64,000 nucleotides of DNA from Candidatus Anderseniibacteriota bacterium (GTDB lineage: Bacteria; Patescibacteriota; Andersenbacteria; UBA10190): NCBI GenBank assembly GCA_040876835.1, contig JBBDOX010000018.1, positions 82,396 to 146,395 of the forward strand, in the 5' to 3' direction. Position 1 is the first letter of the stretch, and every line of letters begins with the position of its first letter. Both the position numbers and the translations under genes were made by a program. Below are positions 10,851 to 61,235 of the stretch, piece by piece. The notes beneath the pieces are model-generated. The model searched no databases. It worked only from the letters and a program-made list of their open reading frames with translations, and was not told the DNA's origin.

Positions 10851-11411
10851 TTAATCTAGCCTCTTTATATACTCTCCAAACTTTCGAAACGATTCTCCGC
10901 GTTGAGACAGCGCGCTCTTCTCCTCCGCAGTCATATCTGAAATTGTTTTTGCTTGGCCTTCATAAATGAAAATTTTGTCATATGGCATCACGTCTGCCTC
11001 CGGATTGTGAACTTCCTCCGTTATTGATCCTCGCATAATTCCTTCGAATAGCTGCGGCTCCTGTCCTGGCTCTGCATATCCCACCACAGTTCGAAAGTAT
11101 GCTTTTCGACTTTCTCCTTCTAACAATTTTAGAATTCCTTTGAAGCCAAGCGTATTCATCACGAATTTTGGTAGCGCGCCAGGAAATCCTTCATATGCTT
11201 CGAAGAATAGCCCCGTATCCTCTACGACCACTGGCGCATTGATCTCTTTGAGCATTTGCAATGCACCGCTGCGAGCCACTTCATCAATGCTCGCATCATG
11301 ATTTTCCTCATACGATCGATCTAGTTGCTCCAGTTCAATGGGGTAATCTTTGAGAATGTCCTGCACCTCCTGAAATTTGTGCTTGTTTGTAGTAACAAAA
11401 TATATTTTCAT
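10851..11411 (-). CDS. rdgB: Non-canonical purine NTP pyrophosphatase (RdgB/Ham1 ITPase family).
   Basis: N-terminus MKIYFVTTNKHKFQEV and Ham1 family architecture, 186 aa. Confidence 0.85.
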   Translation of the reverse strand: MKIYFVTTNKHKFQEVQDILKDYPIELEQLDRSYEENHDASIDEVARSGALQMLKEINAPVVVEDTGLFFEAYEGFPGALPKFVMNTLGFKGILKLLEGESRKAYFRTVVGYAEPGQEPQLFEGIMRGSITEEVHNPEADVMPYDKIFIYEGQAKTISDMTAEEKSALSQRGESFRKFGEYIKRLD

Positions 11412-11413
11412 GT

Positions 11414-12172
11414 TCAGTCATTCATTAATGTCACAAGCTGGCTGTGTAGATCTGCCGGGGCGGCAAGGACACCGGGTTTTCCATATTCAAGTTTTCCATT
11501 CCAGCGATACGGATTACCTTGTACGTCGGTTACCCTCCAACCAGCTTCGGATAGCAATAGTACCGGTGGAGCAAAGTCCCAATCGTATCCGTTATTAGTT
11601 ATGTATCCCTGACGATTTCCCGCTAACGCTTCGAGAGTGTCTGGTCCCGCCCCAAGATCACTCCCAGCAACATCAAGTGAGGTTATCCTTGCCTGTGCTG
11701 ACCGACTAATACCAAGTGGCTTATCAGAATAGTCACGTCCGGTTAAATCTACCTGTTTTCCCTGCAGATAGGCGCCTTTTCCTTTTTCCGCCGTTGCCAA
11801 TACGTCGTTTGCGGGGCTATATACTACCGCCAGCTCTATCTCATTCCCCCGAGCGCGACAAATCATCACAGCAAAATTCTTTTTGTTATTAGCGAAATTG
11901 CGTGTGCCATCTAAGGGATCAACAATCCACGTGTACTGGGAATCCCGCGCCTCGTGCTTGCCAGATTCTTCGGCAACAATAGCGTCTTGAGGGAAAGCTT
12001 CTTTTAACTGTTCGAGTATGATTTTCTCGGCGGCAACATCTGCCTCCGTGGCGTAATCGTTCGGCCCCGTCTTTATATTCCGCGTCAGCTCCGTTCCGAA
12101 ATATTCCATCAACACTTTGCCGGCTTGCTTGGCTAGATCAATTGCGAATTGTGTTTCTTTGCTGGGATTCAT
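11414..12172 (-). CDS. Inositol monophosphatase / CysQ-like phosphatase family protein.
   Basis: WIVDPLDGTRNF and WDFAPP... (WDxAAG-like) motifs. Confidence 0.8.
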   Translation of the reverse strand: MNPSKETQFAIDLAKQAGKVLMEYFGTELTRNIKTGPNDYATEADVAAEKIILEQLKEAFPQDAIVAEESGKHEARDSQYTWIVDPLDGTRNFANNKKNFAVMICRARGNEIELAVVYSPANDVLATAEKGKGAYLQGKQVDLTGRDYSDKPLGISRSAQARITSLDVAGSDLGAGPDTLEALAGNRQGYITNNGYDWDFAPPVLLLSEAGWRVTDVQGNPYRWNGKLEYGKPGVLAAPADLHSQLVTLMND

Positions 12173-12256
12173 CTTCTCTACACTACCAAGTCTTTAAATA
12201 ATTAGATAGAAAAAAACCGCATTCGGTATGCGGCGACTCGTGGGTCTGCGTCGGCT

Positions 12257-12790
12257 CTAAAACACTTCCTTGAAGCGTCGTCGAGCAACATGCAGCCGGC
12301 GCTTGATTGTGCCCAGCGGGGCCTCATTTCGCAGGCTCATCTCCTTGAGAGAGCAGCCGTTGAAGTAGAAGTCCTGCAGGATCGCTCGATCGGGGTCTTT
12401 GAGACATCCCAGGGCTTGCCTCACCCTATCCGCCCGCTCCTCAGCCAGGACAGCGTCATTGGGCTGACGAATGTGATGCTCAAGCGCAAGACTCTGCAAC
12501 ACGTCACCCACGGTTACTTCCATGGGGTGTCTGCTCACCCAGCTGCGAGCTTGGTTGCGAGCGATTTTGTACAACCACCCGGGGAACTTGGTGGGTTGTC
12601 GCAGCTGCCACAGTCTGTACCATGCCTGCAAACAGGCTTCCTGCACCAAATCCTTTACATCGTGCCAGGCCGTAACGTGCTTACGGACGGCATCATGCAT
12701 GAGCCCGGAATGTTCCTTCACCAGCTCATCGAAGGCAGTGCGACTACCAGCCTGGGCAGCAACAACGCGCTTTTCCATTTCTGCGTTCAA
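12257..12790 (-). CDS. ECF-type sigma-70 family RNA polymerase sigma factor, in a GC-richer segment.
   Basis: Region 2 ...LVQEACLQAWYRLWQL...WLYKIARNQARSW and region 4 ...LKEMSLRNEAPLGTIKRRLHVARRRF. No anti-sigma partner is adjacent. Confidence 0.8.
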   Translation of the reverse strand: MNAEMEKRVVAAQAGSRTAFDELVKEHSGLMHDAVRKHVTAWHDVKDLVQEACLQAWYRLWQLRQPTKFPGWLYKIARNQARSWVSRHPMEVTVGDVLQSLALEHHIRQPNDAVLAEERADRVRQALGCLKDPDRAILQDFYFNGCSLKEMSLRNEAPLGTIKRRLHVARRRFKEVF

Positions 12791-12869
12791 GGTACACCCC
12801 CTTTCTCCTAAAAGAGGATCGTTCAGAACCGAAACACCATTCTAGGCCCCTTTTCTTTGTATAGTCAAA

Positions 12870-13283
12870 TTACTGTATTTTTGAAAGGTCGCCGTGGATA
12901 ACTACTGGTTTCATCGCCTCCATTTCAGTTTTGTAATACGGCATATCGGGTATGGGATTGTAGAGAAATATTTTCTGGTTTAACACATGGGCAAAGCCCA
13001 TTTCCAAAAAGGTATTACCGCCTATATAGTTTTCAACACCGTGTTTATCAACATTTAGCACGAGTACCGCTTCTGCATCCTGCATCAGCCGCCACATTTC
13101 ACGAATAGCGTCCAGGTTATTTTTTTGATCAATCTTTATCTTCTCTTTTTCTTCGTCTGATTTGCCGATAAAGGGCGTGTGCAGATCGGTTACGAACGCG
13201 TCATGCCCCATAGTGCGCAGCTGATCGCGTACTTCGAGCATGTTCTCCGTAAATTGCATCGATCCAAGAATGCCGATTTTCAT
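12870..13283 (-). CDS. Nucleoside 2-deoxyribosyltransferase-like (NDT/DNPH1-like) protein.
   Basis: ...NYIGGNTFLEMGFAHVLNQKIFL matches the G-x-T-x-x-E-x-G-(Y/F)-A catalytic-Glu motif of the NDT/Rcl family. 137 aa. Confidence 0.55.
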   Translation of the reverse strand: MKIGILGSMQFTENMLEVRDQLRTMGHDAFVTDLHTPFIGKSDEEKEKIKIDQKNNLDAIREMWRLMQDAEAVLVLNVDKHGVENYIGGNTFLEMGFAHVLNQKIFLYNPIPDMPYYKTEMEAMKPVVIHGDLSKIQ

Positions 13284-13405
13284 ATGAGGCTTTTAGCCTA
13301 ACGAGTGCTTGTTGATCCCCTTAAGTGTTTGAATCTCATAGAATGCGTGGCCAGTGTCTTTCAAAATTATTATCTTCTTTGGATGACTTATGTGTTCAAA
13401 AGATT

Positions 13406-13711
13406 CTACAAATGATCTTTCCACTTACTGACAAACGCTTCTTCTAAATCTATATCAAGCGTATCGGCAAGTATCATAGCCATACCTGCAACATCAGCTA
13501 GTTCTTTAGCCAATTTTTCTTTTGATTCTTCTTCTGATACCCGCTTTACTTTTCGGCTCTTGCCCTGATGGATTAACAGCGCCTGAAACAACTCTCCAAC
13601 TTCTTCACCAAGTTTTAAAGCTGAAAAGTCGGTATCGATAATAATATCGTGAAGCTTGCTATATCCTTTCGCATCTTCTATTACCCGATCTGCTATTTCT
13701 TTGAATTCCAT
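13406..13711 (-). CDS. MazG-like nucleotide pyrophosphohydrolase.
   Basis: LKLGEEVGELFQAL and ELADVAGMAMILAD, the EExxE/MazG helical motifs. 101 aa. Confidence 0.7.
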   Translation of the reverse strand: MEFKEIADRVIEDAKGYSKLHDIIIDTDFSALKLGEEVGELFQALLIHQGKSRKVKRVSEEESKEKLAKELADVAGMAMILADTLDIDLEEAFVSKWKDHL

Positions 13712-13773
13712 AGTTAATTCAATATTATTTTAACTCAATCTGGCCACCACGTGTGACTTGGAGAAATTATTTC

Positions 13774-14364
13774 TTATACTAATAAACTAAATCCCCACTT
13801 CTGCGTAATCGTGTTCAGGCGACACAGAGGCAGCCCCATAAGCGCCGTTACGTCTCCCTCTATGCGTTCAATAATGACCGCTCCTTTGCCTTGAGCAGCG
13901 AAAGCGCCCGCGTGTCCTGCGAGGGGCTCCCCGGAAGCAATGTATGTGTCAATTTCACTATCGCTTAACTCCTTTATATGCACCGCAACCTCTTCGGTGT
14001 CAGTAATCTCTTCCCCAGTTGCGGAGTTAATAACCGTAAAACCTGTAAGAAAGATAAATTTTGCTCCACTTAACCTCTTAAGCATTGCTCGAGCCTCTGC
14101 CTCATCCTTCGGTTTTCCCAAAGCTTTGCCCTTTAGAACCGCAACCGAGTCGGCTCCGACAATAATAGCGCCAGGACGATGCTTGGTTACTGCCTGAGCT
14201 TTGCCCTGCGAAAACTCCTTTACCATTTCATGTGGTTCTAAAGGAAGTGTCATGTCCTCTTCGTAGTCGCTGGGCACTACTTCAAACTGCACTCCCGCTC
14301 GCTCTAGTAAAGTACGGCGACTTCGAGAGGTAGAGGCTAAAATGAGTTTTTTGGTATTGTCCAT
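13774..14364 (-). CDS. maf: Maf-like nucleoside triphosphate pyrophosphatase.
   Basis: N-terminus LILASTSRSRRTLL, plus ...GADSVAV and ...GLPL motifs typical of Maf/YhdE. Confidence 0.85.
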   Translation of the reverse strand: MDNTKKLILASTSRSRRTLLERAGVQFEVVPSDYEEDMTLPLEPHEMVKEFSQGKAQAVTKHRPGAIIVGADSVAVLKGKALGKPKDEAEARAMLKRLSGAKFIFLTGFTVINSATGEEITDTEEVAVHIKELSDSEIDTYIASGEPLAGHAGAFAAQGKGAVIIERIEGDVTALMGLPLCRLNTITQKWGFSLLV

Positions 14365-14445
14365 ATATCTCCCTCAGCATAGACCAGGTATCAGAAAAGA
14401 AAAACGAACCTCGACATATTCCTAATGCGAGATTCGCTGGGAGAA

Positions 14446-14847
14446 TTAGTGTCGCCGGGCAAAGATGCGGGGAACGTTCTCGGGAAGAGGCACCGTACCA
14501 GCAAGATGTATGCCGTCATGTTTTCCTCCCGCCAGCGGACACCAAATTGTCTGGCTGTAGTCGCACCTGAATGGGTTACGATGCAGATCCAGCACGAAGG
14601 GAAAGAGACGTTCGGGACATCGACTTTCCATAGAAGCCAGATCCTGCGTCCACCAGATTGCGGTGGAGTCCCGAAGCCAGAGCTCACGGAAGCAATGGAA
14701 TCTTTCGTTGAGATCCCCGTACTCACAAGTCACCTTCTCGATAAAGCCGTTGATCAAACTCTTTGTTTGACCGAAGGTGAAAATCTCCACCCAACAACCT
14801 CTCCACTCCATCTCCATCACCTCAGTCCACGTGAGAAAGCGGATCAT
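14446..14847 (-). CDS. Hypothetical protein (133 aa, Trp/Cys/His-rich) in a GC-rich segment.
   Basis: Protein-like composition with an AAGGAAAGG ribosome-binding site upstream. It is co-directional with its neighbours. The overlapping plus-strand ORF looks non-protein-like. Confidence 0.4.
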   Translation of the reverse strand: MIRFLTWTEVMEMEWRGCWVEIFTFGQTKSLINGFIEKVTCEYGDLNERFHCFRELWLRDSTAIWWTQDLASMESRCPERLFPFVLDLHRNPFRCDYSQTIWCPLAGGKHDGIHLAGTVPLPENVPRIFARRH

Positions 14848-14944
14848 GCGGTTGCCTTTCCTTTGAGATCAAAGAGCTCGAACTTTTTGGTTGTACCACA
14901 AGGCATGGTGCCTGCAAAGACGTCCCCTCACTATTACTTCGCTA

Positions 14945-15337
14945 TCACCTGAGGCCTTTCAGGCCAGGTACAATATCTTGTATGTCTTTATATTCAATTA
15001 CTCCTTCGGCAACTCCCCGAACACTATCTTTGATTACTGTTCCTTCTTTTGCAATAAGGATTACTTTCTTACGCATTGCGTAGGCCATACCAGCTTCCAC
15101 TGCCCTGCCCGTTGGCTTATCCGTCATATCAAGGAGCAGATAATCAGACTTTTGTATCTCCTGGGCCGTGCGTTTCATTAATTCGTGAGCATCATTAAAC
15201 ACTTTCTCGTAGTGCTCCACATCACGAATAAAGCAAAAATCTTCGAATCCCGCCTCTTTTACCAATGAACAAAGGTGTTCAATTTCGTCCTTATTCTTAC
15301 CGTGCTCAAACGAAGCAGTAATAAATACTCTGGGCAT
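14945..15337 (-). CDS. NDT/DNPH1-like protein, paralog A.
   Basis: ...LLLDMTDKPTGRAVEAGMAYAMRKKVILI matches the NDT catalytic motif. It is about 80% identical at the amino-acid level to 22498-22893. The likely start is MPRVFITAS. Confidence 0.65.
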   Translation of the reverse strand: MPRVFITASFEHGKNKDEIEHLCSLVKEAGFEDFCFIRDVEHYEKVFNDAHELMKRTAQEIQKSDYLLLDMTDKPTGRAVEAGMAYAMRKKVILIAKEGTVIKDSVRGVAEGVIEYKDIQDIVPGLKGLR

Positions 15338-15342
15338 AATTA

Positions 15343-15798
15343 TCAATCCCAAAAATTGCAGTTAGTCTTATATGCTTCAATATATCTTGCTGTAGGTGCG
15401 AAAAGTGGTTGCGGAAGATTATCGAGATCGTACCAGTCCCAATTTTCACGCTTGTGAGGTTCGAGATTCTGCGGTTCTCCGCGTTCCCATTCTGCCAGTA
15501 AACCAATATCAATATAATGTTTGGGTGCGTATTTTGTTACGTTGCTGACGCATAGGAACCGAATATTTTTTATTGTAATTCCCGCTTCTTCCAGAGTCTC
15601 TCTTCGCGCAGTTTCGAAAAGAGATTCGAGTAACTCGACGTGGCCTCCGGTATTGGCGTACTCCCCTTCACCATGGGCGTTTTTACGCTTCCCAAGCAGT
15701 ACTTTATTTTCTTTTAATATCATTACTCCAACACCTACTTTTGGGTACGCAGCAGGTACTTCCTGGATGGCTACGCTACTAATGGGCTGGGTTTTCAC
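15343..15798 (-). CDS. NUDIX hydrolase, paralog A.
   Basis: Nudix box GGHVELLESLFETARRETLEEAGI. Paralogous to 22895-23359. Confidence 0.8.
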   Translation of the reverse strand: MKTQPISSVAIQEVPAAYPKVGVGVMILKENKVLLGKRKNAHGEGEYANTGGHVELLESLFETARRETLEEAGITIKNIRFLCVSNVTKYAPKHYIDIGLLAEWERGEPQNLEPHKRENWDWYDLDNLPQPLFAPTARYIEAYKTNCNFWD

Positions 15799-16007
15799 TT
15801 ACTCACTATATCGCTACTTTTCTTTGGCGGCCAGCGTTTATGCCTTTGCTCGTATCCCGGCTTTGGTGGGTTCCTTTTACATACCTTTTCTTGATGTATG
15901 TCTTAGTTTGTGCTAATTAATACTTGGTTCTTTTGTGTCCCCTTGGCGCTCTTGCAGGTGGTTATTCTCACTTTTTCTGCCTGCAAGGCTTGGAAAGAGG
16001 AGAGCCC

Positions 16008-16357
16008 CCATGCTGCACCAGGTGCGCTTCGAGTGCAATAACCGCTCAGTGCACGTCATGTACGTGATTGACAGCGGGGAGTGCGTCTTCTCGGCGGTGA
16101 CAAAGAATCCATCGAGCATCAACGTTGCCGAGGATATCATCCAGGCCATCTGCATGAAGGAGCATTGCGACCCCACCTCGTTGCGGTTCTTTGACCTCCA
16201 GACTCATCAGGGCTACAGCTCCAAAAGCCCGGGTGAGTTCGAATTCGACCAGCTTTCTGTCGAGTGCCATGGAGACAAAGTCTCGATTCAGGGCTGGACG
16301 CAACTTCCGTGTCCGGCAACGATCCAAAACATCTTCAGTCGCTGCATCAGCGGCTAG
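16008..16357 (+). CDS. Hypothetical protein (116 aa) in a GC-rich segment.
   Basis: AAAGAGGAGAG ribosome-binding site 5 nt before the ATG at 16008. Local GC is well above the flanks. No family recognised. Confidence 0.4.
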
Positions 16358-16511
16358 AAGAGAGCGGGTCAACTCACGATTAACTCCAAAGCCTCTCATA
16401 CCCTTGGCAAGACCAAGGGCTTTTTTATAAAAACCTTCTCAGTAGCGCCACCTATCAATAAGTCGCTCATGGATCGACGCGTTGTTAGAGCAGGTATAAA
16501 AAAGAACCTTC

Positions 16512-16793
16512 TCACGAAGGATCTGGCGATTCGGCTGACTCAGTGGTGATAGTGATCTGCTTTTTGAAGAACCAACAGTGGATACCGTAGATCCAGTTCA
16601 CCATGTACAGAAAGTTGAGGAAAAAGAGGCCCCACTGTTCATGGACGTAAGTCGTAATGAGCCAAAAGGGAGCACCAATGAGCCCAAGAACGAATCCCCA
16701 GCGGTTCTTACGTGCGAGCAAAAAGAGAGCCGGAAGACCAGTCAGCAGAATTACGACCTGTGAGATGTTGTCCCACACTGCTTTTCTCCGCAA
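16512..16793 (-). pseudogene. pnuC: Truncated PnuC-like nicotinamide riboside transporter. Only the N-terminal roughly 90 aa (3 transmembrane helices) is present.
   Basis: Trp-rich helices ...WGFVLGLIGAPFWLITTY...FLNFLYMVNWIYGIHCW resemble the PnuC N-terminus. The ORF stops after 93 aa where the GC-rich segment begins. Confidence 0.4.
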
Positions 16794-20210: not shown

Positions 20211-22025
20211 TTACCCCTTTCCTGATTTTCCCAACTTGCTCTCTATTTCCGGCATAATAATCTGTGATGGTTTTCTTTCAGGAATCTGGATGTTGTTCCT
20301 GTTAAACAAACCTATTCGATGAAGCTTGGAGAGTGCTTCTATATTCACTCCGCCAACCATCAGAAGCTTCTCAGCATTTTGCTTTTGCAACGCACGAGTA
20401 ATAAGCGCTTGCTCCATATATACAAGAGGCTGCGTGTTCGTGGCATGAGGTGATGTGTCGGAAAAGGATCCACCGAATCGGAACTGCCTGGCTGAACGAT
20501 CAATGGCAAGTTTCGCTGTTTCCTTATCATCCTTTGCCGGATTTGCCTCTTTTACACTGTCAAAAAACGCTTTCATACATTCCACTAACGTCCCGCCCAA
20601 CATTCTCCGCTGCAGAGCGCGGAGATAATGGACGTCTACCACTCGCTGATGCCCAAAAAGCTCTGCCTGAGTTTCCTCCTCAATTAGCACTGCGCCTGCT
20701 TCTGAATTCACGCTTGATCTATCTAACCCGACGTTTTCTGTAATCGACAACCCCAACCCCTCCTTGTTTTCATTCTGGATTACGTGTGTTATCTCATGAT
20801 CCAGAACAGCCACGGCACCTGTCGGGCTGGTGCTGGCTAGCGCACGATTAAACGCTTCAGGCACCTTAACCACTCCCTGTTGACTTACAACAATCAGACT
20901 TTCTTTGGAGGGGTCAACAACGATCTGCCACAACCCGTCAGGAGCCCGGCCGGCTCTATCAGGACTATATTCTTCGTGCTGGCTTAAAATACCATATTCC
21001 CGTAAGGCCTTTTTTGCCCATCCGATGAACTCTTCAGCCCCTATTTTGATTTCCCGTAACAACTGTGGATCAACATCCTTGAATGTATAGTCCTCCATGG
21101 GCTCGGGATTTTTTATCATTTGCTCTATCTCTTCAATTATTTCCTGCGTTCCTGGATTAACGGGAGAGTAGTCACCTCCGTACATGCGCTCTCCTACACC
21201 CTGCGCGAATTTATCCAACCGACTAGAGGCCCGGTACTGTCGCTCGTCTTCAAAAAGCTTTGGACCGCGAATATTTTTCTCCAATCTTGCGTATATATCC
21301 TGTGACCTTTCCTGCGGGGCTGTCCTGTGCTGCTTTAAGAACACAGCCGTGTTGGCATATTCTCCTACCAGCAGCTCGTTCAACCGCCGCCTGTGTAAAG
21401 TCAGCATAGTTAGTTTTGCCTGCGAGACGTGGTCCTCTTTTCCTATAAACAACTCTTCTTGCTCCTTGTAGTACTGCTTCAGCAGGCGCAATGATTGCAG
21501 TTTATCTGCCAAAACTTCGGGGTTACGAACTATGTTGAGCTTTGTCGGATTCTCAACGTTCTCGAGTGATGCATACCCGTTATTGGCAAACTGCTCAACT
21601 ACAAGCCCTTCAGAATATTGCCTGCTCTTGCCTGAAATTTTTTCCAGCACTTTGGCATCAATCCCCCGGTAGTCAAGGCCACAAAAGTATTCTTCTATAT
21701 CTGTAAGGGAGCGGAACTGTGGCACCTCTGCGCCCAAGGCTTCTGCTAGATAGCTTCTTCCTTCTTCTGTGAGGAAGTACTCTTCGTAAAACTCAGAGGT
21801 ATTTATTCGCATCTTCCATGCATGTTCAATTCCCTTAGCTGTCTCTCCTGATTTTAAAGGCAGGCTCTCACTCCTTGTGAGTTCCTTTTCGTATTCCAAA
21901 ACCTCTTCTCGCTCTTCGGGAGAAAGAATGAATTCCGGGTCTTTGGCTAGAGATTCAACGGTCTGTTGAATGTCCATTCCGGGTCTTAAGGGAAAAGCCT
22001 CTGGTTTAAATGATTCCAGGTTCAT
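20211..22025 (-). CDS. DUF1704 / QEGLA-motif (MATCAP-like) putative zinc metallopeptidase.
   Basis: HEITH (HExxH) is followed by ...NENKEGLGLS, a QEGLA-like segment. 604 aa. Confidence 0.45.
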   Translation of the reverse strand: MNLESFKPEAFPLRPGMDIQQTVESLAKDPEFILSPEEREEVLEYEKELTRSESLPLKSGETAKGIEHAWKMRINTSEFYEEYFLTEEGRSYLAEALGAEVPQFRSLTDIEEYFCGLDYRGIDAKVLEKISGKSRQYSEGLVVEQFANNGYASLENVENPTKLNIVRNPEVLADKLQSLRLLKQYYKEQEELFIGKEDHVSQAKLTMLTLHRRRLNELLVGEYANTAVFLKQHRTAPQERSQDIYARLEKNIRGPKLFEDERQYRASSRLDKFAQGVGERMYGGDYSPVNPGTQEIIEEIEQMIKNPEPMEDYTFKDVDPQLLREIKIGAEEFIGWAKKALREYGILSQHEEYSPDRAGRAPDGLWQIVVDPSKESLIVVSQQGVVKVPEAFNRALASTSPTGAVAVLDHEITHVIQNENKEGLGLSITENVGLDRSSVNSEAGAVLIEEETQAELFGHQRVVDVHYLRALQRRMLGGTLVECMKAFFDSVKEANPAKDDKETAKLAIDRSARQFRFGGSFSDTSPHATNTQPLVYMEQALITRALQKQNAEKLLMVGGVNIEALSKLHRIGLFNRNNIQIPERKPSQIIMPEIESKLGKSGKG

Positions 22026-22040: not shown

Positions 22041-22496
22041 CTACCTGGTAAGACTAGCGCTAACTTTGGCAGAAAGTCGTTCACACAGGGACACAATCTC
22101 CTCTCCTGCCACAGCTTCAGTCTTTGATACGTTTAAAAGTGAGAAAATATTTGCCCCTCGTTTATCCGCCGGCAGGTCTTCGGGTATAGCGACAATATGG
22201 AAATGAATATGGTTACATCCCCCTTTTTCGGCAAACAATACGCTGTATTCTTTTTGACTTTGAAGCTCTTCATGGAGGGCCTTTGCTGTTGCTCCTTGCA
22301 TGATTGCCAGCTCGCTTAACTCCTTAGTTGATAGCTCATGCAGCGCTTCAGCGTGCCGCTTGAGTACTATGACAAGCCAGCCCGGTATAGCTGATGAATT
22401 CACGTGTTCCACTTTCCAGTATGTACCTTCGTAAATAACCGGACCGGGAGTAAGAGATATTTCGCCTTTAAGCGCTTGGCATGATAGACAGTTCAT
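22041..22496 (-). CDS. HIT family nucleotide hydrolase.
   Basis: Histidine triad ...NHIHFHIVA and an N-terminal Cys-x-x-Cys. Confidence 0.8.
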   Translation of the reverse strand: MNCLSCQALKGEISLTPGPVIYEGTYWKVEHVNSSAIPGWLVIVLKRHAEALHELSTKELSELAIMQGATAKALHEELQSQKEYSVLFAEKGGCNHIHFHIVAIPEDLPADKRGANIFSLLNVSKTEAVAGEEIVSLCERLSAKVSASLTR

Positions 22497-22497
22497 A

Positions 22498-22893
22498 CTA
22501 GCTAATAATCGCCGTTAGCCGAGGCACAATATCCTCGATGTTTTTGTATTCAATCACGGTCTCGGAAATACCTCGAACACTGTCCTTAATCTCTGTCCCT
22601 TCTTGAGCGATAAGAATTACCCTTTTCCCCATTGCGTATGCCATGCCCGCTTCAGCCGCTCTGCCTGTTGGTTTATCTGTCATATCTAATAATAGATAAT
22701 CTGATTTTTGTATTTCTTCTGCTGTTCGCTTCATGAGATCATGGGCATCATCAAACACTTTTTCATAGTTTTCTATATCGCGAATAAAGCAGAAATCCTT
22801 AAAACCGGATTCTTTTACTAGCGCACAAAGATACTCAATCTCAGTCTTATTTCTTCCATGTTCAAACGAGGCGGTAATAAATATTCTTGGCAT
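22498..22893 (-). CDS. NDT/DNPH1-like protein, paralog B.
   Basis: ...LLLDMTDKPTGRAAEAGMAYAMGKRVILI. About 80% amino-acid identity to 14945-15337. Confidence 0.65.
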   Translation of the reverse strand: MPRIFITASFEHGRNKTEIEYLCALVKESGFKDFCFIRDIENYEKVFDDAHDLMKRTAEEIQKSDYLLLDMTDKPTGRAAEAGMAYAMGKRVILIAQEGTEIKDSVRGISETVIEYKNIEDIVPRLTAIIS

Positions 22894-22894: not shown

Positions 22895-23359
22895 CTATTT
22901 ACTATCCCAAAAAGTAGAATTTGTTTTGTATGCCTCTATATACCTTGCCGTTGAAGCAAATAGTGGCTGCGGCAGGTTATCTAGATCATACCAACTCCAC
23001 GCTTCGCGTTTATCAGGCTCAAGTATCTGCGGCTCTCCACTTTCCCATTCAGCTAATAGCCCTATGTCGATGTAATGTTTGGGTGCATATTCAGTGATGT
23101 TACTCAGGCACAAGAAACGAATATTCTTAATTGTAATTCCCGCCTCTTCCATAGTTTCCCGACGAGCAGTTTCAAAAAGTGATTCTAAATGCTCAACGTG
23201 GCCACCAGTATTGGCATATTCCCCCTCACCGTGGGCATTTTTTCGTTTTCCAAGGAGCACTTTGCCATCTTTTAAGATCATCACACCAACACCAACTTTG
23301 GGATACTGCACAGTTACTTCTTTAATTGCGGTTTCACTCATGCCTCTACCCCATCGCAC
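22895..23359 (-). CDS. NUDIX hydrolase, paralog B.
   Basis: Nudix box GGHVEHLESLFETARRETMEEAGI. Confidence 0.8.
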   Translation of the reverse strand: MRWGRGMSETAIKEVTVQYPKVGVGVMILKDGKVLLGKRKNAHGEGEYANTGGHVEHLESLFETARRETMEEAGITIKNIRFLCLSNITEYAPKHYIDIGLLAEWESGEPQILEPDKREAWSWYDLDNLPQPLFASTARYIEAYKTNSTFWDSK

Positions 23360-23756
23360 CTATAATTGCTCCGGCAGCCAATAGTGTTACAAGCATGTTA
23401 CCGGCACCAATCCAGAAGAGTGTCATGCTGCCGCCCCAGATAGCACTGCCGAATTGTACAGGCACTACGAAACCAACCCATGCCAGGAAGGCTGTAGAAA
23501 TTCCGCTACTAACACTCAGGTCTCCTTTTCCTACTACAAACAAGGCTAGAACGTAAAACATGACTAGGCTGGCGATGAGCTGCATGAAATACAGCTTGCC
23601 CATCTTTTTCTTTTCTGCTGCCTGTTTTTCTGGACTCCATTTATTCATTCCTGCAGCTTTCTGAAACGTTTTCCCAAACAAGGGGCCGTACCAGATGCTA
23701 CCTATAACCATAGAGGCTATTGCTGCTGCTATTAACGATATATAACTAACTGGCAT
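23346..23756 (-). CDS. DUF1761 family membrane protein.
   Basis: ...GSIWYGPLFGKTF... start and 4 transmembrane helices. 136 aa. Confidence 0.55.
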   Translation of the reverse strand: MPVSYISLIAAAIASMVIGSIWYGPLFGKTFQKAAGMNKWSPEKQAAEKKKMGKLYFMQLIASLVMFYVLALFVVGKGDLSVSSGISTAFLAWVGFVVPVQFGSAIWGGSMTLFWIGAGNMLVTLLAAGAIIGAMG

Positions 23757-23852: not shown

Positions 23853-24215
23853 TTAAGGAATCAGATTCTGCAAATCCGATACTGCCTGTTCCCAATTTTC
23901 GAAAGCAATAGCACGATCATCAATATACGCGATGGCTGCAGGCTTGTTGTTTGTTAGTTCATGGTAATGCTCGCCTTCAATGAATTTGTTTTCTAGTAAC
24001 CACGTTTCAACAGCCTTTCTTTGTTTGTCCATGTCGGGAAACTTTGGGTTCAGCCTCGCGGTCACTATGGCGATTCTAAACCCCCGTGCTACAAGGTTGG
24101 TAAGGGCTTCGTGTGATTCTTTCACTGGAATGTCATACATCGCTCCGCCATTCCAACCCTCAGAATAGGCATGGATAACTCCATCTAAATCTATGGCGAT
24201 TGTCTTTTTCTTCAT
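23853..24215 (-). CDS. Small HAD-superfamily hydrolase (deoxyribonucleotidase-like).
   Basis: Motif I IAIDLDGVIH. 120 aa, similar in size to NT5C or phage dNMPase. Confidence 0.55.
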   Translation of the reverse strand: MKKKTIAIDLDGVIHAYSEGWNGGAMYDIPVKESHEALTNLVARGFRIAIVTARLNPKFPDMDKQRKAVETWLLENKFIEGEHYHELTNNKPAAIAYIDDRAIAFENWEQAVSDLQNLIP

Positions 24216-24278: not shown

Positions 24279-24950
24279 TTACGATTTTTCCCGCATAGCC
24301 TCACTTACTAGACTGGGTGTTATTTCTTCTACACTCTCAACTATTATATCAGCGTCTTTTACCTTATCTCTTGTCACCGTATGAAGCACAGCAATGCATT
24401 TGGCACCAGACGCTTTAGCTGCCGCCACGCCAGACGGCGTGTCCTCAACAATCAATATTTGATCTTTTGATAAGCCAACCCCAGAAATTCCTTTTAAGTA
24501 CCCTTCTGGATCTGGTTTGCCTTTCTGAACATCGTCGATTGTTACAACAACTTCGAAATAATGCAGTAAATTCTCTTCTTCCAATATAGGGATCACCTCG
24601 GAACGCGGGGATGCAGTAACCAATCCCAGTCTGTAATTTTCACTTAGCCTTGATAAGACAGTCTTGATAGCGGGGTGGATAATACTCTCCTCTTTAACAA
24701 GTTCGGCGTATTCTTTAGCTTTCTGCTCTGTAAGCGCTTTAGCTGAACATCCTTTCAACTTTGCACTAAATGCATGTATAAGATTCTCGAATCCTGCCTG
24801 ACTAGTTCTTCCCAAGCAATGTTCGTTGAATAAATCATGAGTAAGTTCAACGCCTAAATTTGACATGATATTTACCATGACTTTTTCGTGAATATGCTCA
24901 TCATCTACAATAACGCCGTTGTAATCGAACAGGATCCCGTACTTTTTCAT
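24279..24950 (-). CDS. HAD-IA family phosphatase (beta-phosphoglucomutase-like).
   Basis: Motif I LFDYNGVI, a ...GKPDPE... segment and an ...EDTPSGV motif III region. Confidence 0.75.
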   Translation of the reverse strand: MKKYGILFDYNGVIVDDEHIHEKVMVNIMSNLGVELTHDLFNEHCLGRTSQAGFENLIHAFSAKLKGCSAKALTEQKAKEYAELVKEESIIHPAIKTVLSRLSENYRLGLVTASPRSEVIPILEEENLLHYFEVVVTIDDVQKGKPDPEGYLKGISGVGLSKDQILIVEDTPSGVAAAKASGAKCIAVLHTVTRDKVKDADIIVESVEEITPSLVSEAMREKS

Positions 24951-25015
24951 GACTGCAGCATATCAGGTTTAAACCGTCTTTACCCCTTTTAAACTACCCT
25001 TACCTTCAATTTGAG

Positions 25016-25048
25016 CTATCCGGAATTTCCGGATAGTTGGCTTTTTGC
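25016..25048. promoter_or_regulatory. Perfect 10+10 palindrome CTATCCGGAA-T-TTCCGGATAG followed by a T-run. Possible operator or terminator.
   Basis: Inverted repeat seen directly in the intergenic region 24951-25091. A T-tract follows only on the plus side, while both flanking genes are on the minus strand. Confidence 0.35.
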
Positions 25049-25091: not shown

Positions 25092-25658
25092 TCAATGTAC
25101 CAGGCTCAAGCGTTCTTGAGTTAACCCTTCTAATTCATACACCCACCCTGGTTGCCACTGCCAGGGCGCTGTTACTACTTCACGCAAACCTACGCCCTTG
25201 ATCCAGTGCTCTAAACCATACTGCGTAGCTCGGTGACCAATAATCATTACTCTTTTGCCATCGTATTTCTCTAACAAGTCTTCTAAAAAATTCTTCATTC
25301 GCTCTGATGTTTGTTCATAGCTTTCCCCGCTGGGAAACGGCTTTTTAATTCTCTCTGCTCGCTGTTCCTTTATTTCGTCGGCTGGATGCTGAGTTAGATC
25401 TCCGTAGTCACATTCTCGCAACCTTTTGTCTTGAATGATTGGAATGCTCCTGCCACTAAATGCGATCTCTGCTGTTTTATATGAACGTTGAAGATCGGAG
25501 CAGAATATGGCATCGAGTTCTTCGCTGATATAGCGGATGCCAAGCTCTTTCGCTTGTTGAAGGCCTAGCTTCGAAAGCTCGACATCGTTATGTCCAGATG
25601 ATAAATCTTGCTCGTTATCAAGGCTGGTTGCATGAGATTCAAAAATGATTTTAATCAT
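25092..25658 (-). CDS. Histidine phosphatase (phosphoglycerate mutase family)-like protein.
   Basis: ...LQRSYKTAEI... and ...IGHRATQ... resemble PGAM-family motifs, but the N-terminal RHG motif is divergent (ESHATS). Confidence 0.5.
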   Translation of the reverse strand: MIKIIFESHATSLDNEQDLSSGHNDVELSKLGLQQAKELGIRYISEELDAIFCSDLQRSYKTAEIAFSGRSIPIIQDKRLRECDYGDLTQHPADEIKEQRAERIKKPFPSGESYEQTSERMKNFLEDLLEKYDGKRVMIIGHRATQYGLEHWIKGVGLREVVTAPWQWQPGWVYELEGLTQERLSLVH

Positions 25659-25728: not shown

Positions 25729-26268
25729 TTAACATGTCTTGATCCAATTAGCTATTCCTCTAGCAACTTCCTCTGGTGTAAATCGTGCTGTATCAAATAT
25801 TTTACAATTATAATCTTGGCAAATATTCCTTAGCTGTGATGCAAAGGAGATGTTCTGTTTAACACTTTCCTCTAGCGAAAGCCCCGTAGTTCTTGCCCAT
25901 TCGTTTTGCATTTCCTTAGTTGAGAGTCTTTGTCTAAATCTCTCTTCAATTTTTAATGAAGAAACTTCTAGTAAAGCATAGTGAGGCTCTATATTTTCTA
26001 GAAGATCTTTGTTTGCTTCTACCTCACTAGGGATTGAAATTCCGCAAACTACTGCAGTTTTCTCTTGTCCTGCATCCCTTATTCCCTCTTCAAGCCAATA
26101 TCTAGTTTCTTGCTTTCTCCAATTTTCCGAAACATTATCAGGAACACCCCTTTGGTCAAAGTCGTATACGGAAAAATTTACTGGCAACAGCTTTTTAAGG
26201 TATGGGATAATCGTAGTCTTCCCAGACGTACTTACTCCTGTTATGAAAAACATTCTACCTTTAGACAC
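25729..26268 (-). CDS. P-loop NTPase, probable nucleoside or nucleotide kinase.
   Basis: Walker A FFITGVSTSGKTT. 179 aa, small kinase-like. Confidence 0.55.
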   Translation of the reverse strand: MSKGRMFFITGVSTSGKTTIIPYLKKLLPVNFSVYDFDQRGVPDNVSENWRKQETRYWLEEGIRDAGQEKTAVVCGISIPSEVEANKDLLENIEPHYALLEVSSLKIEERFRQRLSTKEMQNEWARTTGLSLEESVKQNISFASQLRNICQDYNCKIFDTARFTPEEVARGIANWIKTC

Positions 26269-26458: not shown

Positions 26459-27055
26459 ATGGGAGAAAAAGTGCCAAACTCATTCAATAGTTATGAGCGA
26501 GAAAGAAAGCTATTCTTACCTTTCATTGGCGTACTAGCTGGCTTACCTCTAACGGGGAAATCTACATTAGGTGAAGCCGTAGCTGCTAAGTCGAATGTCA
26601 TTTTTTTGGACGTAGATGCAGTACGGTATAAAGATGAATCTACTGATTCAGCTAGAGGAACAGAAGAGGAAGAAAAACGGGCAATGGAGACAGCCTATGA
26701 CCAGAATCACAGAATAGCCCAGGAGATGCTTGGTTTGGATCGTCCAGTGCTTTTAGCTGCCACATATTCCCGAGAAAGTTATCACGAGCAGTTAAAGAAA
26801 CTAATCGAAACTGCGCGCAAGCCATTAGTTTTCTTTTTACTAGAAGCATCTGATGATAATGTGCGTAACCGCATAGAGAGCCGTGCAGCCTCTAACAATC
26901 TTTCTAATATCCGTACATATGAGGATTATGCGAGCGTAAGAGACCGATACCAAAAGATGGTAGATGCGCCTGTTGTAACGATCGATACGGATCAGCCACT
27001 CGAACACAGCCGTGAGGCTATTTTCAAAACTCTTCAGCCGTATAGAATCGACTAA
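26459..27055 (+). CDS. P-loop kinase (AAA_33 / zeta-toxin-like fold).
   Basis: Walker A LAGLPLTGKSTLG. 198 aa. Confidence 0.55.
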   Translation: MGEKVPNSFNSYERERKLFLPFIGVLAGLPLTGKSTLGEAVAAKSNVIFLDVDAVRYKDESTDSARGTEEEEKRAMETAYDQNHRIAQEMLGLDRPVLLAATYSRESYHEQLKKLIETARKPLVFFLLEASDDNVRNRIESRAASNNLSNIRTYEDYASVRDRYQKMVDAPVVTIDTDQPLEHSREAIFKTLQPYRID

Positions 27056-51500: not shown

Positions 51501-52068
51501 CATTGGTGCTCGGGATCAGTCCCCTGTACGGATAGCTGGTGTTATCGCAAAAATTAACAAGATTATTACTAAAAGTGGTCAGCCAATGCTTTTTGTGGCT
51601 GTAGAGGATCTAACAAGCAAAGTAGAAGTATTAGTCTTTCCTAAGATGCTTGAGACTACGAGTGAAATTTGGGTTGATGGCGGTAAGGTAATCCTGCAAG
51701 GAAAAATTAGTGATAAAGACGGTGAAACTAAGATTCTCCTTGATAAAGCCTGGCCTCTAACGAAAGAAAACCTAGAAAACCTGGCTGGCAGTAATCCCCA
51801 CGTCAAAAAGGCCAGCGGCGGTTCTGCGCCCTCGCGTGGCGTTCATCTGTATATTCCTGAAGCAATTAGCCGTATACAGATGGAGGCCATACGCGATGTT
51901 TTATCTCGCCTGCATCAGGATGGTGGTCCCCTGCCAGTAGAAATTATCGTCTCGCGTGATGGAAAACCCACTAAACTGCAGACTCAGTACCGCGTATCGC
52001 TCGAAGCACAGATTGTGCAGGAACTTGCCCCTATTCTAGGACCTCAAGCCATTACAGTTGTTAGCTAA
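48574..52068 (+). CDS. dnaE: DNA polymerase III alpha subunit.
   Basis: PHP domain HLHVHSHYSLLDG at the N-terminus, about 1160 aa. The start at 48574 is preferred. Confidence 0.9.
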   Translation: MAGDFTHLHVHSHYSLLDGLGKLDAIVARTKALGMDSIAVTDHGAMYGVIEFVQTAKEYGIKPIIGMEAYLAPKGRANKRGKIDANPRHLTIIAQNNEGYKNLMKLSTKAFLEGYYYKPRLDYELLEQHRNGLIILSGCLNGDIPKAIQEKRPDDVKQLIEWHLEMFGRDNFYFEVQDHPHIEEQKQLNAALVKYAKQYNIGLVATADSHYIHPEDAEAQDVLVCVQTGKTVQDKDRLCMLDEDFSIKSPQEVKEAWKDHPEAVDNTQKIAEMCNVEFEFGVNKLPPFPLPKGKTADAALRESCEQGLKTRFGKNLPADARERVDYELDVIKKTGFASYFLIVSDFVNEAKRRGILVGPGRGSAAGSLVSYLTNITNVDPLKYNLLFERFLNPERVSMPDIDLDFADDRRGEVIDYVRDKYGAAHVSQIITFGTMAARAAIRDAGRALAFPYSFCDQIAKAIPPFTNFEQSLAQTGELRQMYDSDPQAKKLIDTAKKLEGVCRHASTHAAAVVITDEPLTEYVPLQLSSTDDGETGTVTQYAMGPVEALGLLKMDFLGLKNLTVIQKAIDIIKERHNTNIDLDDLPLQDPAAYKLLQEGKSIGVFQLESAGMRRYLKELKPTEFEDIISILALYRPGPMDSIPDFIAAKHGRKKITYLHPILQPILEKTYGVIVTQDQVLQIARDFAGFSYAEADILRKAVGKKIKELLDEQRNKFITGAINTKSIDKETAQKVWDFIEPFARYGFNRAHAACYAMIAYQTAYLKANYPSEFLCALLISDEGNTDRQAIEIADALSLNIEVLPPDINESYDDFTVVSTEESTAAIRFGLGGVKNVGHNAIGALIEERTKNGAYKDLFDVFRRVNSRDFNRKSVESLAKAGAFDCVAERAQMITNAEKLLEFNRGLYRKRDMGQQNLFGTNQEELAAPTIQLDTVAPAEQDLKLQWEKELLGLYVSEHPLTALRQDLERLSVPIAEIIGARDQSPVRIAGVIAKINKIITKSGQPMLFVAVEDLTSKVEVLVFPKMLETTSEIWVDGGKVILQGKISDKDGETKILLDKAWPLTKENLENLAGSNPHVKKASGGSAPSRGVHLYIPEAISRIQMEAIRDVLSRLHQDGGPLPVEIIVSRDGKPTKLQTQYRVSLEAQIVQELAPILGPQAITVVS

Positions 52069-53224
52069 TATGCCGGTTGAAGTTGTTTTACCTGTCAAAA
52101 CGCTAGTTCTGCTTCTGATAGCAGGGATTACTGCCGTTGGGGGGAGCTTAGCATATGTCTACCTGCCGCGGGCAACCATTACTCTGCGCCCCGCTACTTC
52201 AATTAAGGAAGCAGAGCAAACTATCATTCTTTCCACCGCAGCTAAGGAGCCTGATTTTGTGCGATATATTCTTCCCGCAAAGCTAGTTGAGCAAGAAGTA
52301 ACTCAAAAACAGCTATTTCAACGATCGGGTAGTGAAGCTGCAACGACCGAGGATTTTGCAAGAGGAATAATAACTTTGACTAACAAACAATCAGAAGAGC
52401 AAAATCTACTTCCCAAAACTCATTTGCGTCACGAAGCAAATGGGGTATTTTTTCTCACCGATGCGGCAGTGAAAATTCCGCCCCAGAGCGAAGTGCAAGT
52501 ATCGATAACTGCTAAAGAGAAAGGATCTTCAGGTAACGTGCCTGCTGGTTCATTCATTGTTGATAAACTGCCTACTTCATTGCAAACAGCTGTTTACGGC
52601 ACCAGTAGCCAAGCGTTTAGTGGTGGATTGGTGACTGAACGTGCCTTAACAGAGGAAGAAATTTCAGCCGCTAAAGAAAATATTCTTGTAGCCGCTAAGC
52701 AACAAGCAACGGGAGAGCTTACCTTAAAAGCTGGTGGAGCACAGATTCGCGAGGACCTAATTACGGCATCAGTGCTCTCTGAAAACATATCGGCTGAACC
52801 GGGCAGTCGCACTACTGAGTACTCTATTGAAACTACTGTGCGAGCACGCGGATTTGTAGTTGATGACAAAGACATGCTTAGTCTAACCTTACTAAAATTG
52901 CGCAGTAATATTCCATCCGATGAAGAATTTATTTCCTATGAGCCTGATTCATTTCAGCTCAGCGTTGATAAAGCTGATTTCGAACGAGGTGAAATTCGCG
53001 TGATCGGCAAACTGACTGGTCTGTTTGCTCGCAAGATAAGTCCGAGCACTTTGCGAGCCGCTAGCATTGCCGGGCTTAGCCAGAAGGAAGCTCAAACACA
53101 TTTTGAACAAATGCCGGATGTGGGCACTGCCGAGGTCCGCTTTTGGCCCTTCTGGGTCACCACCACACCCGCTCGACCCCAAGCCGTAGAAATGATGGTA
53201 GAAAATATTCACGCTAAACCCTAG
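52058..53224 (+). CDS. Hypothetical membrane-anchored protein.
   Basis: Overlaps the dnaE stop by 11 nt. N-terminal transmembrane helix. No family recognised. Confidence 0.45.
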   Translation: MLANMPVEVVLPVKTLVLLLIAGITAVGGSLAYVYLPRATITLRPATSIKEAEQTIILSTAAKEPDFVRYILPAKLVEQEVTQKQLFQRSGSEAATTEDFARGIITLTNKQSEEQNLLPKTHLRHEANGVFFLTDAAVKIPPQSEVQVSITAKEKGSSGNVPAGSFIVDKLPTSLQTAVYGTSSQAFSGGLVTERALTEEEISAAKENILVAAKQQATGELTLKAGGAQIREDLITASVLSENISAEPGSRTTEYSIETTVRARGFVVDDKDMLSLTLLKLRSNIPSDEEFISYEPDSFQLSVDKADFERGEIRVIGKLTGLFARKISPSTLRAASIAGLSQKEAQTHFEQMPDVGTAEVRFWPFWVTTTPARPQAVEMMVENIHAKP

Positions 53225-58770: not shown

Positions 58771-59193
58771 ATGATTTCCTTTGAAGTAAAGCGCCTAAGC
58801 GATAACGCCACTCTGCCCCAGAAGAATAACCCTTTGGACGCTGGTATCGATATCTTTACAAATGAGTCATATACTCTCTCCCCTGGCGAAACTCACATGT
58901 TCTCAACCGGCATTTCTGCAGCCTTACCGGACGGTTATGTGGCCTTGATCTGGGACCGATCGGGCCTCGGCAGCAAAGGTATCCACCGTTTAGCTGGAGT
59001 GATTGATTCTATTTACCGCGGCGAATGGAAAATTATTCTTACCAACCTAACTGCCGACCCTTACGAAATACAGGCTGGAGACAAGATTGCTCAATGTATA
59101 GTACAAAAGTTTGAACCGGTCACAATTACTGAAGTGGAAGAACTCTCCAATACTGATCGTGGCAGTCAAGGTTTCGGCAGTTCAGGACGTTAG
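58771..59193 (+). CDS. dut: dUTP diphosphatase.
   Basis: Motifs ...AGIDIF..., ...RSGLGSKG..., ...IDSIYRGEW..., ...DRGSQGFGSSG. 140 aa. Confidence 0.85.
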   Translation: MISFEVKRLSDNATLPQKNNPLDAGIDIFTNESYTLSPGETHMFSTGISAALPDGYVALIWDRSGLGSKGIHRLAGVIDSIYRGEWKIILTNLTADPYEIQAGDKIAQCIVQKFEPVTITEVEELSNTDRGSQGFGSSGR

Positions 59194-61218: not shown

Positions 61219-61235
61219 AGAAAAGGTATTTACAA

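Follow-up and report, generated by a model that had tools for sequence, protein, structure and literature searches.

The window analysed here is a stretch of 64,000 nucleotides from a metagenome-assembled genome (MAG) of Candidatus Andersenbacteria (Patescibacteria, candidate phyla radiation (CPR)), a small-genome and probably host-dependent bacterium. It carries two runs of small genes, array 1 (10.85–15.8 kb) and array 2 (22.0–27.1 kb), and a third group at 58–62.6 kb (region 3), in which families that act on nucleotides lie close together. In the reading that we consider probable, small genes of nucleotide-pool sanitation and salvage have accumulated in this chromosomal DNA as co-directional runs, within a part of the chromosome that varies gene by gene. 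The cluster is a lineage-specific and plastic set of known nucleotide-sanitising and salvage enzymes, and represents neither a conserved operon nor a new kind of system. A first-pass annotation of the same DNA had described dense runs of nucleotide house-cleaning and phosphoesterase genes, which profile searches and a permutation of gene order confirm. It had also offered, as one possibility, a scavenging and sanitising module of an organism that would depend on external nucleotides; this is still the best reading because of the CPR taxon, the sanitising superfamilies and the return of the theme at the corresponding locus of a relative, once the notion of a conserved module or operon is given up.

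Genomic setting and clustering

All open reading frames (ORFs) of the window were mapped and 73 ORFs were scanned against Pfam; the RdgB, IMPase, sigma, Maf and Nudix proteins were also scored against the curated cut-offs of NCBIfam. The window holds genes for ribosomal proteins, aminoacyl-tRNA synthetases, DnaE, GatB, MiaA, RF1 and EF-Ts as well as four tRNAs, and it is therefore chromosomal. NCBI lists proteins identical to those of the window under Candidatus Andersenbacteria. When gene order was permuted within the window, a strict set of 14 nucleotide-acting genes formed 8 adjacent pairs (p = 1.6e-4) and a broad set of 20 genes formed 13 adjacent pairs, a number that none of 100,000 shuffles attained; the classes of genes in this test were post hoc, set after inspection of the data.

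Nucleotide synthesis is mostly missing in CPR/Patescibacteria (PMC4736985), and salvage-dependent cells require sanitising enzymes from the same superfamilies as those in the window (PMC12887539). The first pass had seen no de novo nucleotide synthesis genes here, and this held: neither the 73 scanned ORFs nor the ~10 kb on either side (~84 kb in total) yielded a gene for de novo purine or pyrimidine synthesis.

Gene content of the arrays and of region 3

The genes of array 1 are encoded on the minus strand. RdgB/HAM1, a non-canonical purine NTP pyrophosphatase of the ITPase superfamily (10851–11411), is matched over its full length by Pfam Ham1p_like (PF01725; E 3.8e-40, profile positions 1–185 of 186) and scores 159.4 bits against a cut-off of 145.35 in NCBIfam TIGR00042. 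The Maf nucleotide pyrophosphatase (13774–14364) is likewise matched over its full length (Pfam Maf, PF02545; E 4.8e-53) and scores 174.9 bits with TIGR00172, above the cut-off of 117.15. An IMPase/CysQ/HisN-family phosphomonoesterase gene (11414–12172; Pfam Inositol_P, E 1.8e-49) has its stop codon 2 bp from the RdgB start, and its product stays below the cut-offs of HisN, SuhB, CysQ and all other NCBIfam equivalog models. A putative small, single-domain MazG-like all-alpha NTP pyrophosphohydrolase (13406–13711) shows the metal-binding motifs EExxE and ExxD in its translation; its Pfam matches are sub-cut-off (MazG-like 23.3 bits versus 27, PRA-PH 20.9 versus 21.3, MazG 17.5 versus 22), and its nearest solved relatives in PDB are YpjD (2gta, E 0.0015) and a nucleotide pyrophosphohydrolase (5ie9). 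The array further contains a sigma-70 factor of the extracytoplasmic function (ECF) type (12257–12790; NCBIfam TIGR02937), two proteins of the NDT (nucleoside deoxyribosyltransferase) superfamily, and a Nudix hydrolase of the NUDX1/NUDT15/MTH1-like type (copy A, 15343–15798; Pfam NUDIX, E 2.7e-17). One NDT-like protein is divergent with a short C-terminus (subfamily b, 12870–13283; Pfam PF05014, E 1.3e-3, sub-cut-off); the other (subfamily a, copy A, 14945–15337; PF05014, 28.7 bits versus a cut-off of 28.8) starts 5 bp from the stop codon of the Nudix gene. Nine of ten consecutive genes had been assigned in the first pass; the family calls were essentially right and the count was off, eight genes being assignable and the remaining ORF (14446–14847) being doubtful as a gene.

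Array 2 begins, again on the minus strand, with a HIT-family nucleotide hydrolase/transferase (22041–22496), which has the histidine-triad motif HIHFHIV in its translation and above-cut-off profile matches (Pfam HIT 24.3 bits versus 21.5, DcpS_C 24.1 versus 24). Beside it lie copy B of NDT-a (22498–22893; PF05014, 27.5 bits), with 80% amino acid identity to copy A, and copy B of the Nudix hydrolase (22895–23359), with 85%. They are followed by a DUF1761 membrane protein with no assigned nucleotide function (23346–23756; Pfam DUF1761, E 3e-23), a small HAD-like protein of 120 aa (23853–24215), a HAD-superfamily phosphatase (24279–24950; Pfam HAD_2, E 2.9e-28), a PGAM-like histidine phosphatase of branch 1 (25092–25658; Pfam His_Phos_1, E 1.1e-33) and an AT-rich P-loop kinase-like protein of 179 aa (25729–26268; 37.4% GC) with the Walker A motif GVSTSGKT, a weak Pfam AAA_18 match and nothing significant in a sequence-only PDB search. 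An AAA_33 P-loop kinase is encoded next to them on the plus strand (26459–27055; Pfam AAA_33, E 2.6e-12, with weak dNK and SKI matches). Thus the earlier inventory of array 2 stood for the HIT, NDT-like, Nudix, HAD, PGAM-like and P-loop genes; its second HAD phosphatase is the 120-aa protein, seen by motifs only (DLDGV (DxDxV), VTAR and K..YIDD) with no match in Pfam or PDB, and DUF1761 had gone unmentioned.

Region 3 contains, on the plus strand, a dCTP deaminase (dcd, 58189–58761; Pfam DCD, E 2e-46) and a dUTPase (dut, 58771–59193; Pfam dUTPase, E 1.5e-32). On the minus strand, two thymidylate-kinase-family (Tmk) paralogs (61236–61901 and 61935–62639; Pfam Thymidylate_kin, E 3.6e-24 and 4.7e-22), 24% identical to each other, lie directly downstream of rplA in the order rplK-rplA, and an NDT-like gene of subfamily c (60841–61263) shares 28 bp with the end of the Tmk gene upstream of it. 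The first pass had placed a fourth NDT-like gene and two Tmk genes with dcd and dut here, and Pfam finds them all, the NDT-like one weakly (PF05014, 20.9 bits, E 4e-4, sub-cut-off). A 521-aa protein with no assigned function is also encoded in this region.

Conservation and turnover of the region

For comparison of loci we used as anchor the lineage-specific 604-aa protein encoded between the two arrays (20211–22025), which has no Pfam match and, among 5.8 billion proteins, 8 homologues besides itself, each of ~600 aa and 39–62% identical. The locus of its closest relative (L082, 62% identity) keeps the frame of the region, with an AI-2E transporter, DUF2207, RdgB (57%), an orthologue of the MazG-like gene (58%), the 604-aa gene and a methyltransferase (64%). 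Maf, the sigma factor, any NDT-like gene, MurJ, the C39 peptidases and PnuC are missing from it; in their stead stand three other Nudix genes, two IMPase genes, an NT5C-type 5'-nucleotidase, a DUF6036 nucleotidyltransferase and a cupin. The window IMPase is 40% identical to one of these two IMPase genes, and L082 also has an AAA_33 gene. The functional theme, i.e. NTP pyrophosphatases together with nucleotide phosphatases, is thus kept in L082, the sole relative that shows the whole array 1 locus.

A second Andersenbacteria MAG (L172) covers part of the region at closer range: MurJ, one C39 peptidase and DUF1761 (92%) are 89–94% identical to their counterparts in the window, and the other C39 peptidase is 79% identical. 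There, a glyoxalase, an aminoglycoside nucleotidyltransferase and UCP014422 replace the small HAD-like gene, and a P-loop kinase 60% identical to that of the window comes directly after the NDT gene, in the place of the HIT and 604-aa genes. L172 has a single Nudix-NDT pair, orthologous to copy B, with a Nudix 85% identical. In relatives whose 604-aa protein is 39–45% identical, the neighbours are ordinary housekeeping genes and the arrays are absent. Hence the arrays are a region of gene-by-gene turnover with fluid membership; with respect to related genomes the theme recurs at the L082 locus, and the arrays as such are not retained at larger distance. Per-gene GC in the arrays ranges from 37% to 57%, against a mean of 46.8%.

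In a scan of 185,579 species genomes the best match of Maf came from a Patescibacteria MAG at 51% identity. Neither this MAG nor the other 79 loci share any other array gene, and near Maf in a few loci only dut, FtsW, HAD and sigma factor genes were found from the set in the window; because the collection holds no close relative, the synteny of Maf is uninformative.

Two further observations concern these loci. The variable region of the relatives (L082 9153–9831, L172 997–1569) carries a PemK toxin gene with a small upstream ORF, an aminoglycoside nucleotidyltransferase, a glyoxalase and DUF4440, none of which occurs in the window. Moreover, a HIT gene comes after the 604-aa gene in two distant relatives, and before it in the window.

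Transcription units and the ECF sigma factor

Only four junctions are tight, namely Nudix/NDT-a, NDT-a/HIT, IMPase/RdgB and NDT-c/Tmk; the other intergenic gaps are mostly 60–120 bp, and one is 580 bp. Given these larger gaps, a terminator-like hairpin after the sigma gene and the unconserved gene order, neither array can be taken for a single operon, and the runs appear to be composed of several transcription units. The idea of conserved modules or single operons, which the first pass had entertained, is thus abandoned, the content differing between relatives as well. Between the HAD and histidine-phosphatase genes lies a perfect hairpin with an 11-bp stem (25014–25038), which could be a bidirectional terminator splitting array 2.

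The sigma factor scores 82.4 bits with TIGR02937 (cut-off 42.9), and Pfam finds both region 2 and region 4. As the first pass had noted, its gene is GC-rich: 56.9% GC, with 65.7% at third codon positions (GC3), where the gene mean is 46.8% GC. The gene is closely flanked by the region's best promoter-like site (10 of 12 matches) on its upstream side (12868–12839, minus strand) and by the terminator-like hairpin on its downstream side (12234–12216, minus strand); such sites occur overall at chance-level counts, and it is their positions alone that are suggestive. The nearest homologues are ~43% identical, the named ones coming from large genomes of Planctomycetota/Pirellulales type, and among the best 120 matches none besides itself comes from CPR. 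No anti-sigma gene lies beside it, its neighbours being the NDT-like and IMPase genes, and the gene is absent from L082. Because of its composition, the lack of an anti-sigma gene, its absence from L082 and its Planctomycetota-type homologues, we read the sigma gene as a foreign, stand-alone insert, probably acquired horizontally and forming a transcription unit of its own. Dedicated regulation of the array by this factor, as had been suggested, was rejected for the same features: no anti-sigma partner, absence in relatives, foreign composition and distant homologues.

The NDT-like proteins

The four NDT-like genes fall into three subfamilies, a (the two copies in the arrays), b and c, and their PF05014 scores of 28.7, 27.5, 20.9 and 19.3 bits all stay below the cut-off of 28.8. 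For NDT-a 289 homologues were found, of which the best 120 are 58–81% identical and come from MAGs labelled Woesebacteria, Shapirobacteria, Paceibacterota, Moraniibacteria, Jacksonbacteria, Andersenbacteria and Woesearchaeota (a DPANN archaeon); among the matches listed, NDT-a is confined to metagenome sequences of CPR/DPANN type. No relatives of the NDT-like proteins were found in IMG/VR or in GenBank phage records, and our literature searches found no paper on this family or on such arrays in CPR. In a sample of 39 homologues, 29 of 130 positions are invariant, including Cys23, Cys35 and Glu81. The Glu is conserved in all four paralogs of the window and in the 39 homologues, and aligns with the catalytic nucleophile of the superfamily.

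The AlphaFold (AF2) model of NDT-a (pLDDT 85, pTM 0.81) was compared with known structures by Foldseek, which returned human DNPH1 and the CMP/hmCMP N-glycosidases MilB and BcmB first and true deoxyribosyltransferases after them (TM 0.65–0.77); DNPH1, MilB, BcmB and a designed phosphodeoxyribosyltransferase account for the whole of the top 17. A profile search of PDB gave BcmB as best match (E 0.011). The predicted fold and the conserved Glu place the NDT-like proteins in the NDT superfamily, with the flavodoxin-like fold of NDT, DNPH1, MilB and BcmB. Subfamily c is connected to copy B of NDT-a at 29% identity (BLASTP, E 3e-8), with the Glu kept. Subfamily b, a family of 977 clusters, had no PDB match in sequence-only searches, and HHalign joins it to NDT-a with a probability of 92.3% (E 5.6e-7) and the conserved Glu aligned, the NDT-a alignment used being free of NDT-b sequence.

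Membership in DNPH1 proper was judged by the residues catalytic Glu104, Asp80 and Tyr24. In NDT-a the Glu is matched, the general acid Asp80 stands opposite a non-conserved Thr in the HMMER alignment, and Tyr24 could not be assigned to a position. From the fold match and the invariant Glu the closest likeness is thus to nucleotide-monophosphate N-glycosidases, and we treat the NDT-like proteins as putative enzymes of this kind without filing them as either DNPH1 or NDT.

The Nudix-NDT pair

Both Nudix proteins score far above the Pfam cut-off of 21.1 bits (63.5 and 64.4 bits) and carry the Nudix box GX5EX7REUXEEXGU. Their best PDB match is 4kyx (E 9e-33), a Rickettsia Nudix annotated as an ADP-ribose pyrophosphatase, followed by AtNUDX1 (E 3e-29), NUDT15 (E 9e-20) and MTH1; on the strength of this sequence proximity, they are putative (d)NTP-sanitising enzymes of MTH1/NUDT15 type. 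The pair of Nudix and NDT-a genes occurs twice in the window, and the similarity between the copies does not extend beyond the two coding regions, where synonymous sites have reached saturation and pN/pS is 0.12–0.13 for both genes. These ratios indicate that selection has kept both copies, i.e. that each is maintained by purifying selection as judged from the codons; the duplicates go back either to an old duplication or to two separate acquisitions.

Across 78 metagenome loci, Nudix was the commonest family next to NDT-a, with 10 of 139 immediate neighbours, ahead of SecA (6–9), glyoxalase (3), HIT (2) and GNAT (2). ORFs with a Nudix box made up 6.5% of adjacent genes, 2.0% of those two or three genes off and 0.8% beyond (Fisher's test for adjacency: odds ratio 5.4, p = 0.002, with some loci being near-duplicates). 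At a locus from Paceibacterota, HIT, NDT, glyoxalase and Nudix genes follow one another in this order. The link of Nudix and NDT is thus real but loose, and is missing at most loci.

As a tentative idea, which we rate as rather unlikely, NDT-a could serve host-dependent ultra-small prokaryotes as a dedicated nucleotide-monophosphate N-glycosidase, which together with the MTH1/NUDT15-like Nudix would dispose of modified (d)NTPs from host or environmental nucleic acids in two steps, from (d)NTP to (d)NMP and from there to base and (deoxy)ribose-5-phosphate. If true, such a route would also supply sugar phosphate to central metabolism.

Other features of the window

The 580-bp gap in array 1 (14365–14944), which lies between Maf and NDT-a and is without a confident gene, holds the doubtful ORF of 133 aa (14446–14847, minus strand), rich in Trp and Cys and without a Pfam match. 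The gap has 52.7% GC, a GC3 of 61% and an AT skew opposite to that of the adjacent minus-strand genes, and it shows no similarity to any relative locus retrieved; it may be a decayed gene or another element. Upstream of the Nudix gene, the stretch at 15799–16511 has 55% GC and contains a plus-strand ORF (15935/16010–16357; GC3 73%), a gene according to the Logan annotation and without a Pfam match, which looks like another foreign or orphan gene in the region. A hidden RNA gene was considered for both stretches (14365–14944 and 15799–16511) and discarded, as there was no Rfam match at E <= 1 and the fold z-score of -2.5 is unremarkable. Next to the latter stretch, an ORF for the nicotinamide mononucleotide (NMN) transporter PnuC (16512–16793) has 93 aa only and aligns to profile positions 4–74 of 175; it is probably a gene fragment.

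At a larger scale, rplK-rplA (63750–62645) and rplJ-rplL (1933–1406 and 1383–958) lie on the same strand, separated by 60.7 kb, and the entire window falls within the normally contiguous L11-L1-L10-L7/L12 cluster. Upstream of L11 stand secE-nusG, as usual, and downstream of L1 the two Tmk genes; after L7/L12 comes a ClpB-like gene, not rpoB. A 388-aa protein encoded right after dnaE (52058–53224) weakly matches a Baseplate_J-like Pfam model (E 3e-5), an odd find among housekeeping genes.

Proposed route and competing explanations

If the runs serve nucleotide-pool sanitation and salvage, scavenged nucleosides and nucleotides would be phosphorylated by the Tmk-family and P-loop kinases, whose specificity would be broad. 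Non-canonical (d)NTPs would be converted to (d)NMP and pyrophosphate by RdgB/ITPase, the all-alpha MazG-like protein, Maf, the MTH1/NUDT15-like Nudix and dUTPase with dCTP deaminase. Aberrant monophosphates might then be removed irreversibly by the DNPH1/MilB-like NDT N-glycosidases, giving base and (deoxy)ribose-5-phosphate, or alternatively by HAD, histidine or IMPase-type phosphatases, and the Nudix-NDT pair would be the tightest two-step unit of this scheme. At the gene level this would be the picture of a nucleotide-scavenging bacterium that keeps building blocks which are damaged or carry foreign modifications out of its DNA and RNA, with a sanitising tool kit that is quickly assembled and reshuffled instead of being inherited as a fixed operon.

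Several points weigh against this reading. Membership of the arrays changes even in a relative that is ~90% identical in the flanking proteins, and none of the neighbours of Maf recurs beside it in the nearest species-level genome. Unrelated genes stand within the runs (the sigma factor, DUF1761 and the doubtful ORF) and between the arrays (MurJ, the C39 peptidases and the 604-aa protein). No NDT-like protein exceeds the Pfam cut-off, and the general-acid Asp of DNPH1 appears unmatched in the alignment. The IMPase, HAD, histidine phosphatase, HIT and P-loop families are generic and need not act on nucleotides; for all window proteins, we infer the substrates, as we do the coupling of the steps and the dependence on external nucleotides. 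Moreover, the negative result for de novo pathways covers ~84 kb of the genome.

The strongest rival, which we regard as possible though on the unlikely side, is that the region is a dumping ground for accessory genes, a hotspot of recombination and horizontal transfer open to every small and self-sufficient gene, of which those for Nudix, HAD, HIT, GNAT, methyltransferase and glyoxalase would just be the most frequent in CPR, so that the nucleotide theme would be a by-product with no functional coupling. The gene-by-gene turnover among close relatives, the heterogeneous GC, the foreign sigma factor and the PnuC fragment are all as it would have them, as are the accessory genes with no bearing on nucleotides (GNAT, methyltransferase and ASCH in the window; PemK, aminoglycoside nucleotidyltransferase, glyoxalase and cupin in relatives) and the neighbourhoods of the NDT-like family, which are mostly unrelated to each other. 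However, a stretch of 5 kb holds four NTP-pyrophosphatase superfamilies, and other members make up the same theme at the locus in L082, where the positions of RdgB and the MazG-like gene are kept and IMPase-family genes are present too; the enrichment of Nudix beside the NDT-like gene declines with distance, and both Nudix-NDT copies are under purifying selection. A dumping ground thus accounts for turnover and mixed composition, but not for the recurrence of the theme or for the Nudix gradient.

We think it improbable that the genes serve cofactors or other phosphoester metabolism instead, with Nudix acting on NAD, NMN or ADP-ribose beside a remnant of PnuC, IMPase being a phosphatase of NADP or of 3'-phosphoadenosine 5'-phosphate (pAp), HIT acting on dinucleoside polyphosphates and the NDT-like proteins on NMN-like or cytokinin-type ribotides. 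NADP and pAp phosphatases do belong to the IMPase family, the PnuC fragment lies upstream, and the top PDB match of Nudix carries the ADP-ribose pyrophosphatase annotation, but the PnuC ORF is cut down to 93 aa, and the best NCBIfam match of Nudix, an NAD+ diphosphatase (NudC), reaches 47 bits against a cut-off of 158, with NUDX1, NUDT15 and MTH1 equally close. Moreover, RdgB, Maf, MazG, dUTPase and dcd are specific for (d)NTPs, and a match of the kinase to nicotinamide riboside kinase is insignificant (E 0.6).

An anti-phage defence or counter-defence island, acting by nucleotide depletion or by removal of phage-modified nucleotides, is very improbable: the region is variable and gene-dense, with a toxin-antitoxin gene in the relative's version, and dCTP deaminases, NDT-like, HIT (ThsC-like) and Nudix domains are found in known defence systems, with weak PADLOC domain matches here (Nudix to PDC-S07, E 3e-8; HIT to ThsC, E 1e-3), but no sensor/effector architecture is present, dcd, dut and tmk stand beside ribosomal protein genes in a housekeeping context, and neither phage DNA similarity nor viral relatives of the NDT-like family were found. 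A search for known defence systems gave no system-level match in PADLOC-DB 2.0; the P-loop proteins match AAA models weakly, and nothing in it matches the NDT-like, MazG-like, dcd or 604-aa proteins. An origin from a phage or mobile element was likewise rejected, as megablast of the array against GenBank phages returned nothing and the NDT-like family lacks viral relatives.

Comparison with known systems

Sanitation and salvage in a variable region, the reading preferred here, can be set against four known systems. The window encodes all five superfamilies of house-cleaning NTP pyrophosphatases (RdgB/ITPA, MazG, Maf, the MutT/MTH1/NUDT15 type of Nudix, and dUTPase), and four of these share a stretch of 5 kb. 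In Escherichia coli, rdgB, maf, mazG, mutT and dut lie at separate loci, and such genes are scattered singletons in model bacteria. By contrast, the genes of the window are juxtaposed, but this juxtaposition is lineage-specific and unstable.

With genomic islands and plasticity regions the locus shares conserved flanks, gene-by-gene replacement, mixed composition, a foreign sigma gene and a truncated transporter gene; it differs from them in having no integrase, tRNA boundary or direct repeats at the array edges, and in containing the essential-looking MurJ.

The setting is the same as that of nucleotide salvage by AMP phosphorylase and form II/III or III-like RuBisCO in CPR and DPANN, i.e. 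small-genome, probably host-dependent cells using external nucleotides (PMC5113843, PMC4736985). None of the enzymes of that nucleoside pathway is encoded in the window, whose genes would concern the quality of the pool and the breakdown of (d)NMP, not the recovery of carbon. The dependence of CPR on external nucleotides is already established, and no part of the present cluster constitutes a system of a new kind.

What is of most interest is the highly conserved DNPH1/MilB-like family and its recurrent pairing with Nudix. NDT-a resembles DNPH1/Rcl (5-hydroxymethyl-dUMP N-hydrolase), MilB and BcmB in predicted fold, in the Glu and in its size of ~130 aa, whereas its sequence identity to them is 17–24% only and it has invariant residues of its own, including Cys23 and Cys35. 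This CPR/DPANN family, hitherto uncharacterised, is thus a tractable target for enzymology.

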